The position numbers and the translations under genes are program-made. A stretch of DNA of 9,779 bases from a virus. Lineage: Duplodnaviria > Heunggongvirae > Uroviricota > Caudoviricetes. Positions 2,338-3,337 of this stretch are shown here, piece after piece (position 1 is the first letter of the stretch; each line of letters starts with the position of its first letter). The stretch lies in the IMG/VR virus record IMGVR_UViG_2703718811_000003, positions 1-9,779 of that record, one strand, 5' to 3'. The notes beneath the pieces are model-generated. The model did not search any database. It saw nothing but the letters and a program-made list of their open reading frames with translations, and was not told the origin of the DNA.

Positions 2338-2444
2338 GCAGAATATTTTGCTGAAAAATGACGTTGGCCAACGCGGGCAGATAACACGAAATCCTGCGAA
2401 CTGGCAAAATGTAAGTGAATAAAGTCAACAAGATTGTTTCATGA

Positions 2445-2476
2445 AGAGGCACCGTAATGGTGCCTTTGTCATTTCT
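2445..2476 (+). terminator. candidate rho-independent terminator between the endolysin and the ant-like gene
   Basis: Stem AGGCACC (2447-2453) / GGTGCCT (2459-2465) with loop GTAAT, followed by ttgtcatttct. Lies about 110 nt after the endolysin stop, inside a 274-bp non-coding gap. Confidence 0.45.
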
Positions 2477-2611
2477 GCGCTTCGCACAAGCGTAAATAAA
2501 CCAAAGAACCTTTCAGGATGAGCCCTGGTGGATAACCGGCAGTGGTCTGGTTAACCCTCTTTGGGCTGGTTATTCCTGTGCGCAGGGTTCATCACTAAAA
2601 GGAAATAACCG

Positions 2612-3181
2612 ATGAATATGATGACCGTGCCGTTTCACGGCGATTCTCTTTATGTGGTTAACCATAACGGCGAACCATACGTTCCCATGAAACCTGTCGT
2701 TGCGGGGATGGGGCTGGCCTGGCAATCACAGTTGGCTAAGTTAAGACAGCGTTTTGCGTCAACTATAACGGAAATCGTTATGGTTGCTGAGGATGGGAAA
2801 CGACGCAATATGGTGTCCCTGCCGCTTCGAAAACTTGCAGGCTGGTTACAAACCATCAATCCCAACAAAGTAAAACCCGAAATCCGCGGCAAGGTAATCC
2901 AGTATCAGGAAGAGTGTGACGATGTTCTCTATGAATACTGGACGAAGGGTTTTGTCGTTAATCCCCGTCGAATGAGTGTGATGGAAGAACTCAATCAGGC
3001 TTGCGCTGACATGAAACGGGATAAAAACATTGCCAGTGTGTTTGCTACCGGGCTGAATGAGTGGAAACAGGTTAAATCCGCGCATGTATCAAAAATCCGC
3101 ACATTGATAAACGAAGCGAATCTGCTGATTGATTTTGTCCTGGCTGATACAGGCAAAGGGAAAATAACAAAGGCGGATTGA
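2612..3181 (+). CDS. ant: phage antirepressor-like protein (P22_AR N-terminal domain type)
   Basis: 189 aa; AGGA at 2600-2603 sits 8 nt before ATG 2612. N-terminal region (VPFHGDSLYVV…GEPYVPMKPVVAGMGLAW…LAGWLQTINPNKVKPEIRGKVIQYQEECDDVLYEYW) fits the antirepressor N-terminal domain pattern as I recall it. An ant-like gene between R and Rz is a feature I recall from 933W-like phages. Confidence 0.75.
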   Translation: MNMMTVPFHGDSLYVVNHNGEPYVPMKPVVAGMGLAWQSQLAKLRQRFASTITEIVMVAEDGKRRNMVSLPLRKLAGWLQTINPNKVKPEIRGKVIQYQEECDDVLYEYWTKGFVVNPRRMSVMEELNQACADMKRDKNIASVFATGLNEWKQVKSAHVSKIRTLINEANLLIDFVLADTGKGKITKAD

Positions 3182-3330
3182 TGGAGTGGTGGCTAATGAT
3201 ATCGGATAAACTCATAACGCTGGCGAAGATCCTCTGTGTAATCGTCGGCATTTCATTTTTAGTCATGCTGGTTGCCATTTTCTTTTCCACCGCCTGGCGA
3301 GTCCTGACGTTATCGGGACTGGTGGGGTGA
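3181..3330 (+). CDS. small hydrophobic membrane protein (49 aa), not in the supplied ORF track
   Basis: ATG 3181 overlaps the ant stop TGA (3179-3181) as ATGA; AGG 7 nt upstream. Translation MEWWLMISDKLITLAKILCVIVGISFLVMLVAIFFSTAWRVLTLSGLVG has one clear TM helix. It exactly fills the ant-Rz gap and ends 8 nt before the Rz start. Confidence 0.4.
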   Translation: MEWWLMISDKLITLAKILCVIVGISFLVMLVAIFFSTAWRVLTLSGLVG

Positions 3331-3337
3331 AAGAGAG

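Follow-up and report, generated by a model that had tools for sequence, protein, structure and literature searches.

The interval between the endolysin gene R and the spanin gene Rz was analyzed in a 9,779-nucleotide (nt) stretch of Caudoviricetes DNA (IMG/VR record IMGVR_UViG_2703718811_000003, positions 1 to 9,779; hereafter the window), which represents the late region of a 933W-like (Traversvirus) Shiga toxin (Stx) phage. The interval (2338-3337) is probably best explained as carrying two independent accessory modules of the Q-dependent late lysis operon: an RNA-gated regulator, made up of a structured leader RNA and an ant-like gene, and an envelope or lysis micro-protein encoded by a small open reading frame (ORF) with a single transmembrane (TM) segment. 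Both genes were already known or annotated; what is new is the leader RNA, which recurs across genera, and the fixed placement of the leader-gene unit in lysis cassettes.

The stop codon of R at 2337 and the start of Rz at 3338 leave exactly 1000 nt between them. The original prediction, made from the window alone, of about 1 kb with two extra genes interrupting the lambda-like order S-R-Rz/Rz1 was thereby confirmed; the leader RNA, the most distinctive feature of the interval, had been missed. The interval is 100% identical to the corresponding DNA of the phages phi296, ArgO145 and Shigella 75/02 Stx, and 316 phage records match it.

Structured leader RNA upstream of the ant-like gene

The 274-nt spacer between R and the ant-like gene gave a fold z-score of -3.83 against shuffled controls (2338-2625). 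Three elements were distinguished, all on the plus strand. The first is an intrinsic-terminator-like hairpin with a U-rich tail (2445-2476, stem 2445-2467), supported by a terminator scan, the minimum free energy (MFE) fold and covariation; the second is a small GC hairpin (2476-2494) seen in the MFE fold; and the third is a long stem-loop of about 95 nt (2509-2602), supported by the fold z-score, the pair list and a covariance model (R1). At the base of the long stem, positions 2509-2513 are predicted to pair with 2598-2602 (AAAGG), the Shine-Dalgarno (SD) sequence of the ant-like gene, whose ATG lies at 2612.

Within E. coli, the leader is present in two haplotypes only, with about two compensatory events. 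The same three-part layout was also found in Salmonella, Serratia, Photorhabdus, Xenorhabdus, Proteus, Providencia, Arsenophonus, Symbiopectobacterium and Phytobacter (ten genera in total), where it precedes homologues 61-79% identical at the protein level. All seven pairs of the terminator hairpin covary across genera, and the terminators of Serratia, Photorhabdus and Xenorhabdus have a canonical GC stem followed by U6-7. An equivalent of the small hairpin (GCGC...GCGC) was present in all genera inspected and lies outside the consensus structure of the covariance model.

For the long stem, 15 of the 18 modelled pairs showed double compensatory changes. In a MAFFT alignment of 22 leaders, RNAalifold predicted 25 pairs, 21 of them with compensatory double changes. 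In the model-based alignment, 96.9% of cells pair, compared with 40-50% when partners were slid, and double changes occurred at 22 of 25 pairs, compared with 5-10 when slid; none of 500 shuffles reached the observed values. The MAFFT figure is the fairer one because the model-based alignment was fitted to the model.

The covariance model R1 scored 123.8 bits on window positions 2435-2620 (E 7e-22). When 541 kb were searched at E <= 0.01, 32 sites were obtained, and 31 ended at a start codon (two of these cut by a contig end). The genes behind these 31 sites were members of the two-domain family described below, a KilAC gene in PhiR5_1 and a KilA-N gene in Symbiopectobacterium. No site was found upstream of longer P22_AR_N proteins in the searched 541 kb. 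A weak second-site match in Arsenophonus (L194 in our numbering of comparison loci; 55 bits) stops just short of the ATG of a Rha gene. Second leader copies lie at 1884-2088 of L195 (Symbiopectobacterium) and 3747-3924 of L194, preceding a 242-aa KilA-N and a 229-aa Rha-domain protein, respectively, with a C-terminal half common to both; tandem units of leader and Bro-network gene therefore exist.

In Rfam 15, neither the whole window (at gathering thresholds) nor 2300-2700 (at E <= 10) nor the relatives matched any family. The same scans recovered sar upstream of P22 ant, and IsrK, C4 and c4-a1b1 upstream of Gifsy-1 anrP. On the evidence of covariation, the leader is a well-supported RNA motif new to Rfam.

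Neither 2338-2611 nor the surroundings of the small ORF contained a predicted sigma-70 promoter, and the unit is therefore probably entered only by read-through from upstream. The sequence TTGTCA at 2468 was considered as a promoter and rejected, having no usable -10 element by inspection. No upstream ORF resembling orf45 of Gifsy-1 was found in the leader: the frame that ends in the ATGA overlap has 39 open codons, none of them ATG, GTG or TTG.

Two side observations concern other RNA elements. In Gifsy-1 (L260, 33259-33441, minus strand), a weak R1 match of 15 bits was located immediately downstream of anrP. Here the terminator of the known sRNA IsrJ, AGCCUCGCCAUCGUGCGGGG, matches the Serratia leader terminators almost exactly; behind it come remains of the small hairpin and then the first part of the stem. 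IsrJ may be derived from a decayed copy of an R1-type leader. Separately, the longer (~270-320 aa) P22_AR_N proteins of many genera (L202-L259) have in common a different conserved motif, ...AGTCAGGGGCTTCT-AT...AGGAA-ATAGACATG, about 60 nt upstream of their start codons. Rfam contains nothing that matches this motif, which could be a further leader yet to be catalogued.

Domain architecture of the ant-like protein

The gene behind the leader (2612-3181, plus strand) encodes a protein of 189 aa. P22_AR_N (PF10547) was matched at residues 5-113 with an E-value of 8.5e-45, and the helical domain ORF11CD3 at residues 122-164 with 28 bits against a cut-off of 25. Residues 1-126 are 48% identical to residues 10-136 of P22 Ant, and no alignment extends beyond residue 126. 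The C-terminal domain P22_AR_C (PF10548) was not detected in this protein, whereas the same scan found it in P22 Ant (E 7e-31) and in the Ant of phage 1717 (E 1e-29). The 307-aa Ant of the Stx2 phage 1717, which carries both P22_AR_N and P22_AR_C, is encoded among tail genes.

The description of the gene as ant-like thus holds for its P22_AR_N domain, while its naming as an antirepressor is not warranted. Judged by domain architecture, it would not be classed as a P22-type antirepressor, and the label appears unjustified because P22_AR_C is absent. The Stx-phage Ant with experimental support (Phi24B, 2851) is a different gene located upstream of qut, and the C-terminal region of the Phi24B protein is reported to be 82% identical to P22 Ant over the last 104 residues (PMC3064807). 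Hundreds of Stx-phage and E. coli records give the gene the name "antirepressor", a label that its architecture does not support; it is to be kept apart from the Ant of Phi24B and 2851.

Homologues below E 1e-5 numbered 2363, with the architecture conserved at about 188 aa. The best-listed 120 clusters were 61-94% identical and came from many genera; named clusters included Salmonella, Photorhabdus, Xenorhabdus, Serratia, Proteus, Providencia, Hamiltonella, Sodalis, Arsenophonus and others. P22_AR_N and ORF11CD3 are both on the Pfam list of the Bro network, a set of proteins that swap domains and whose members also include KilA-N, Bro-N, ANT/KilAC and Rha (PMC10111431). Swapping of this kind was observed behind the same leader, with a KilAC protein in L004, a KilA-N protein in L195 and a Rha protein in L194. 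By its domain content, the ant-like protein is assigned to the Bro network.

The N-terminal domain showed hints of an APSES-like fold, and Foldseek returned nothing below E 0.4 against the PDB. A sequence search of the PDB produced noise only, the NCBIfam scan gave no informative matches, and no nuclease domain was found in the Pfam and NCBIfam scans.

The identity to P22 Ant over the N-terminal 126 residues leads to the alternative that the protein is a true antirepressor of CI-type repressors, of the same or of co-resident prophages, providing positive feedback or cross-induction late in the cycle. O157 genomes carry up to 7-10 copies of the gene alongside many lambdoid prophages, and AnrP, the anti-repressor-like protein of the Gifsy-1 late region, induces prophage (PMC4825925). 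However, AnrP was rejected as a homologue of the ant-like protein (E 2.3), P22_AR_C is absent, the experimentally supported Stx-phage Ant is another gene, and late expression would be redundant for the phage's own induction. A true antirepressor is therefore possible but rather unlikely.

Genomic position of the leader-gene unit

The placement of the unit was surveyed in about 40 non-redundant loci. In Serratia, it lies between a lysozyme of the signal-arrest-release (SAR) type and DUF2570/LysC spanins; in Xenorhabdus stockiae, between a GH24 lysozyme and Rz/Rz1. The unit of X. hominickii and X. lircayensis is flanked upstream by a different protein of about 133 aa without Pfam match, putatively an endolysin because a holin-like ORF precedes it, and downstream by a separate pair of inner-membrane (i-) and outer-membrane (o-) spanins. 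The unit precedes Rz/Rz1 in Proteus and follows a peptidase-M15-like endolysin (weak match) in Providencia and a GH108 endolysin in Salmonella (L180). In other genera, the spanins come directly after the ant-like unit, with no small TM peptide of the phrog_4906 type, the family of the E. coli small ORF.

The unit is thus usually found at the endolysin-spanin junction despite unrelated flanking families. Its recurrence beside unrelated lysis genes means that it is either selected there or inserts and recombines there preferentially. The arrangement extends beyond 933W-like and Stx phages, since it also occurs in the non-Stx prophage Sp10 and the ant-like unit in many other genera.

As an alternative, the unit could be a selfish mobile cassette or recombination linker that targets this junction without benefit to the phage. 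This would account for the same junction being used between unrelated endolysin and spanin families and for the alternative Bro-type cargo (KilAC, KilA-N, Rha) behind the same leader, and Bro-network domains resemble the DNA-binding modules of homing endonucleases (PMC10111431). Interrupted copies also agree with it: in Xenorhabdus lircayensis (L187, 3001-3573) and an Arsenophonus endosymbiont (L194, 3001-3571), the ant-like frame is open for only 39 and 45 codons from its start, respectively, behind an intact, high-scoring leader, so these copies look pseudogenised. Against it stand the missing nuclease domain, the 61-94% protein identity among the 120 best-listed clusters from many genera, and the compensatory evolution of the leader, which points to selection for regulated expression. 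A purely selfish cassette is considered unlikely.

On one Salmonella contig (L177, 1-4700), the neighbours of the unit are ParA/ParB genes, HicAB genes and STnc100/tRNA elements, which points to a plasmid-prophage setting and not to a lysis cassette.

The small single-TM ORF

The predicted 49-codon single-TM ORF at 3181-3330 (plus strand, stop codon 3328-3330) proved to be a genuine micro-protein gene co-oriented with the late lysis genes. Its only TM segment reaches a maximum 19-residue Kyte-Doolittle value of 3.14 at residues 17-35. The junction with the ant-like gene had been described as an ATGA overlap; it actually reads TGATG, the stop codon TGA of the ant-like gene (3179-3181) sharing one base with the ATG at 3181. 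Alternative starts are a TTG at 3178 and an in-frame ATG at 3196, the latter with GGAG (3183-3186) nine bases upstream.

In ant-less phages, the small ORF starts with ATG-TCA-GAC (MSD..., MSDKL) behind its own strong SD sequence, GGGAGGA. Homology to these relatives begins at 3199, and their start lies one codon earlier; the conserved protein is therefore 43-44 aa long, and its 43-codon core corresponds to 3199-3327. In line with the expectation that a real frame would be conserved, an intact ORF was present in 165 of 165 related loci, in each case with exactly 43 codons plus stop from an M/I-SDKL start.

Among these loci, 18 DNA alleles were distinguished, with no indels and no premature stops, and the variable sites were distributed over the three codon positions as 14/12/23. 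The median pairwise ratio of nonsynonymous to synonymous substitution rates (dN/dS) was 0.34 in frame, compared with 0.79 and 1.55 in the other two frames, for pairs that are non-independent because most of the divergence sits in one C-terminal haplotype block. The DNA of the N-terminal two-thirds is nearly invariant, and divergence is located in the C-terminal third. The most divergent members retain the length and the pattern MS(D/G)K...L..IL...SFS...W...SGL.G.

The ORF matched phrog_4906, a PHROGs family of unknown function, over positions 1-49 of 49 (E 1.4e-33), and this was its only PHROGs match; none was obtained in Pfam or NCBIfam, and no homology to holin, antiholin, releasin, spanin or toxin families was found in the three collections. 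A protein search returned 62 clusters; wherever the source was named, it was E. coli or one of its Stx phages. Only 30 narrow clusters emerged when 1.84 billion representatives were searched exhaustively with a profile.

The ORF had been called hidden. It was indeed below the cut-off of the supplied ORF track and is missing from the old 933W record, but it is widely annotated elsewhere: as a hypothetical protein in many phage records and in every E. coli RefSeq hit shown (by the Prokaryotic Genome Annotation Pipeline, PGAP), and as ECs_1966 in RefSeq Sakai, in the non-Stx prophage Sp10. Ribosome footprints on the frame, also called for earlier, have been published for the Sakai orthologue, which Hücker et al. 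2017 (PMC5597208) reported as the novel translated gene XECs191 and classed as "real". In lysogeny broth (LB), it showed an RNA value of 30.0 reads per kilobase per million (RPKM), a ribosome profiling (RIBOseq) RPKM of 12.6, a ribosome coverage value (RCV) of 0.43 and a coverage of 0.55, and its supplement row reads "inner membrane". These footprints count as weak evidence, since the cells had not been induced and O157 genomes contain several copies of the ORF. Taken together, these data argue for a real, translated single-TM gene beyond chance.

In all cases, the ORF encodes a TM protein inside the cassette, co-oriented and situated between R and Rz, as would be expected of a lysis regulator, and a lysis or membrane role is plausible. 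Signs of a type I toxin were lacking: no promoter-like site was found on either strand near 3100-3340, and Rfam gave no antitoxin RNA. From the gene order, the ORF would be expressed with the operon.

Only 7 nt separate the stop codon of the small ORF from the ATG of Rz, and the SD region of Rz overlaps the last codons of the small ORF. This leads to the alternative that the ORF is a translated spacer only, with ribosomes stopping at 3328-3330 and re-initiating at Rz. The junction GGGGTGAAAGAGAGATGA is identical in the window, in Sakai Sp10 and in the tm60-type phage PhiR12_4, and the near-invariant DNA of the N-terminal two-thirds could reflect RNA or linkage constraint. Against this, the in-frame dN/dS is 0.34, the divergent C-terminal third shows conservative hydrophobic replacements and a preserved length, extreme hydrophobicity is retained, and in 8 loci another ORF (tm60) lies between the small ORF and Rz. 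Given this constraint at the protein level and the tm60-separated loci, a spacer role is less likely than that of a modulator and is regarded as doubtful.

Independence of the two modules

Among the loci surveyed, about 78 had the order S-R-ant-small-Rz and about 73 the order S-R-tm60-small-Rz, tm60 being a 60-aa TM ORF of unrelated sequence. A few carried tm31 and/or a KilAC-domain gene in the slot. The position of tm60 between the small ORF and Rz in 8 loci (e.g., L004 and L096) means that adjacency of the small ORF to Rz is not obligatory.

Breakpoints determined by blastn against L002, L003 and L096 placed the variable cargo at about 2424-3198, with the left boundary at 2423, behind a post-R spacer (2338-2423, plus strand) common to all slot variants. 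The small ORF, from 3199, fell into the same conserved block as Rz. For H-19B and Stx2c phages, the match was confined to query positions 1-86 of the interval. In complete E. coli genomes, the small ORF was present in 1235 of 5426 and the ant unit in 895 of 5426.

Since about half of the loci have no ant, the breakpoints are separate and the genome counts differ, the small ORF and the ant-like gene are, by comparison of sequences, two independent modules and not one coupled insert. In E. coli lambdoid prophages, the small ORF is part of the Rz-side backbone. That the two ORFs form one coupled insertion tuning holin or spanin, or acting as a toxin or exclusion factor, as originally predicted, is very improbable. 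In its favour, the window and Sakai Sp10 have TGATG at the junction alike, the late operon includes both ORFs and the TM peptide is real. Against it, tm60 takes the place of ant upstream of the small ORF about equally often, and the small ORF then has its own SD sequence; the breakpoints at 2423 and 3199 part the modules, the ant-like unit of other genera stands directly before the spanins with the peptide absent, and the peptide resembles no holin, antiholin or toxin family.

One Stx2c phage has neither the small ORF nor ant, yet it carries another small hydrophobic ORF, ending in ...WKFILIWLVFVIMASGYFIGQIRWW, that overlaps the start of Rz. The occurrence of different small ORFs before Rz, including this one, means that single-TM ORFs upstream of Rz recur in these cassettes. 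The tm60, tm31 and Stx2c ORFs (L002, 2304-2486; L004, 3466-3561 and 3698-3814; L170, 2578-2796) are unrelated single-TM sequences and gave no Pfam or NCBIfam match.

Proposed mechanism

From the anatomy, conservation, coding constraint, RNA covariation and genomic positions described above, together with the published footprints, we infer the functional steps that follow. In lambdoid late operons, the polymerase that reads through is Q-modified and terminator-resistant. For the first module (~2424-3198), which is distributed across Enterobacterales, Q-modified, terminator-resistant late transcription would be the only way into the cassette. Translation of the ant-like gene would be held low by sequestration of its SD sequence until the leader stem is opened or is processed or cleaved, and its product, with a putatively KilA-N/APSES-like P22_AR_N domain and a helical ORF11CD3 domain, would be a DNA- or protein-binding regulator made late.

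The second module (3181/3196-3330) would act as a non-essential inner-membrane modulator of envelope disruption, affecting the timing of pinholin, SAR endolysin or spanin. Its translation may be linked to that of its neighbours, through TGATG with the ant-like gene and through the 7-nt distance to the Rz ATG.

Several observations weigh against this explanation. The U-tract of the E. coli terminator is weak, and SD sequestration comes from predicted folds: the outermost, SD-pairing helix (CCUUU/AAAGG) was seen in single-sequence folds from three genera, lies outside the consensus of the covariance model and, being invariant within E. coli, has no covariation support there. The unit of Photorhabdus follows Rz/Rz1, a Salmonella contig carries the unit just upstream of the holin gene, and plasmid-like Salmonella contexts lie outside the lysis cassette. 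For the small ORF, the dN/dS values derive essentially from two haplotype blocks, the RIBOseq signal of XECs191 is low, and flank charges of 0/+1 leave the orientation of the TM segment ambiguous.

A bolder form of the two-module explanation is quite speculative and, in our view, improbable. It holds that terminator, SD-sequestering leader and Bro-type protein constitute a new RNA-gated late regulator that phages of Enterobacterales put specifically at the endolysin-spanin junction, and that the pre-Rz micro-proteins (43-aa family, tm60, tm31 and the Stx2c variant) are a new class of lysis modulators. If this were true, the regulator may couple lysis commitment to cross-induction or silencing of co-resident prophages, or time spanin expression, and the micro-proteins would modulate lysis by pinholin, SAR endolysin and spanin.

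The release of toxin depends on the late operon and on lysis; genes of this cassette could therefore affect the amount and timing of Shiga toxin. The leader would represent a third, non-homologous solution for RNA-level control of ant-like genes, beside sar and C4/IsrK. The fixed position of the unit between unrelated families offers a comparative handle on why phages put a regulator there, and the micro-protein lends itself to study as a possible accessory lysis factor of the pinholin/SAR-endolysin pathway.

Other features of the window

The first listed gene is the C-terminal part of NanS-p (95-871). The lysis cassette starts with an S21-type pinholin gene S (1584-1799; Pfam Phage_holin_2_1, E 9e-33; holin in PHROGs), followed by R (1804-2337), which encodes a SAR-type endolysin with a hydrophobic N-terminus (Pfam Phage_lysozyme, E 2.4e-23). 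Beyond the interval lie the genes for the i-spanin Rz (3338-3802; Pfam Phage_lysis, E 1e-49) and, inside it, the o-spanin Rz1 (3558-3743; Pfam Rz1, E 3e-22). These four are on the plus strand, and the region ends with the lipoprotein gene bor on the minus strand (3834-4127; Pfam Lambda_Bor, E 2.8e-30).

An AT-rich palindrome (2337-2352) is located directly at the R stop codon. The end of homology at 2423 coincides with the stop of an alternative-frame ORF (2117-2422, 101 aa) overlapping the 3' end of R, a 38-aa piece of which is annotated in phi296. This ORF is taken to be non-coding, since most of the differences between its post-R part and the Stx2c homologue are, by eye, radical replacements. 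An antisense ORF of 72 aa (3072-3290, minus strand) is open opposite the 3' end of the ant-like gene and most of the small ORF, probably as a consequence of the codons that make up the TM peptide on the sense strand. Further downstream, a 720-aa ORF (6492-8654) with an alanine- and glutamate-rich N-terminal region and long collagen-like Gly-X-Y repeats (GPKGD/GPQGP...) presumably encodes a tail fibre with a collagen-like stalk.

Between nanS-p and the holin gene (872-1583), part of the sequence is taken up by a 127-aa ORF (1125-1508). The small RNAs (sRNAs) AsxR, AgvB and Pas are located between stx/nanS-p and the holin gene (PMC4104026; bioRxiv 2026.05.13.724894), and the Rfam scan of the window found none of these types in 872-1583. 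A known prophage sRNA in the R-ant spacer was rejected, as AsxR, AgvB and the Pas sRNAs map to the nanS-p/stx-to-holin side instead.

Published data sets were consulted for the interval. The supplements of Tree et al. hold no entry at the Sp10 coordinates, numeric matches being read counts. In the main text of the Sp5 late-gene deletion study (PMC5155283), neither ECs121x numbers nor the words anti-repressor, endolysin and holin occur, and "bor" appears only in an author name of the reference list. The Rem preprint proved unrelated. K-12 Qin was rejected as a well-studied homologue, its slot being empty because rrrQ abuts rzpQ.

Comparison with known systems

P22 Ant shares with the ant-like protein a homologous P22_AR_N domain, and in both cases RNA-level control near the ribosome-binding site is involved, by sar in P22 and by the predicted leader in the window. 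In contrast, P22 Ant has 300 aa and P22_AR_C, while the window protein has 189 aa and ORF11CD3 instead. P22 ant lies in the immI region with sar, arc and mnt; the window gene lies in a lysis cassette without these.

The closest functional precedent, by analogy, would be the IsrK-orf45-anrP arrangement of Gifsy-1, in which an anti-repressor-like gene of about 187 aa is located in the late region behind an RNA with a Rho-independent terminator, and read-through of the sRNA terminator yields a folded, translationally silent anrP mRNA (PMC4825925). In the window, a terminator is likewise followed by a predicted SD-occluding stem; of these, the terminator and the inner part of the long stem have covariation support. 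There are several differences. The Gifsy-1 leader is of the C4/IsrK type with a coupled orf45, whereas the window leader has neither an orf45-like ORF nor a predicted promoter, and the Gifsy-1 genes lie between Q and holin, whereas the window unit lies between endolysin and spanin. IsrK/C4 was rejected as the identity of the window leader, as no Rfam match to IsrK, C4 or c4-a1b1 was obtained even at E <= 10, and R1 likewise gave no C4/IsrK-type element in the window.

The Bro network resembles the first module in that both domains of the window protein are on its Pfam list and KilAC, KilA-N and Rha genes are exchanged behind the same leader. It is, however, a loose domain-shuffling set with no single function, whereas the window family has a fixed length of about 188 aa, a dedicated leader and a site in the lysis cassette.

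For the second module, XECs191/ECs_1966/phrog_4906 is the same family as the 49-codon ORF, with 88-98% identity for ant-linked alleles. The window ORF and XECs191/ECs_1966 differ in a few residues, the N-terminal extension being MEWWL in the window and MGWL in the latter.

In phage P2, LysA lies between the endolysin gene K and the spanin genes LysB/LysC, and the Mu releasin is an accessory membrane protein of the lysis cassette. Like the window peptide, both are small membrane proteins in or near the endolysin-spanin interval that are co-expressed late, and they are non-essential for lysis. They share no sequence similarity with the window peptide, which has one TM segment and 43-49 residues. 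By its position, the small ORF is analogous to P2 LysA.

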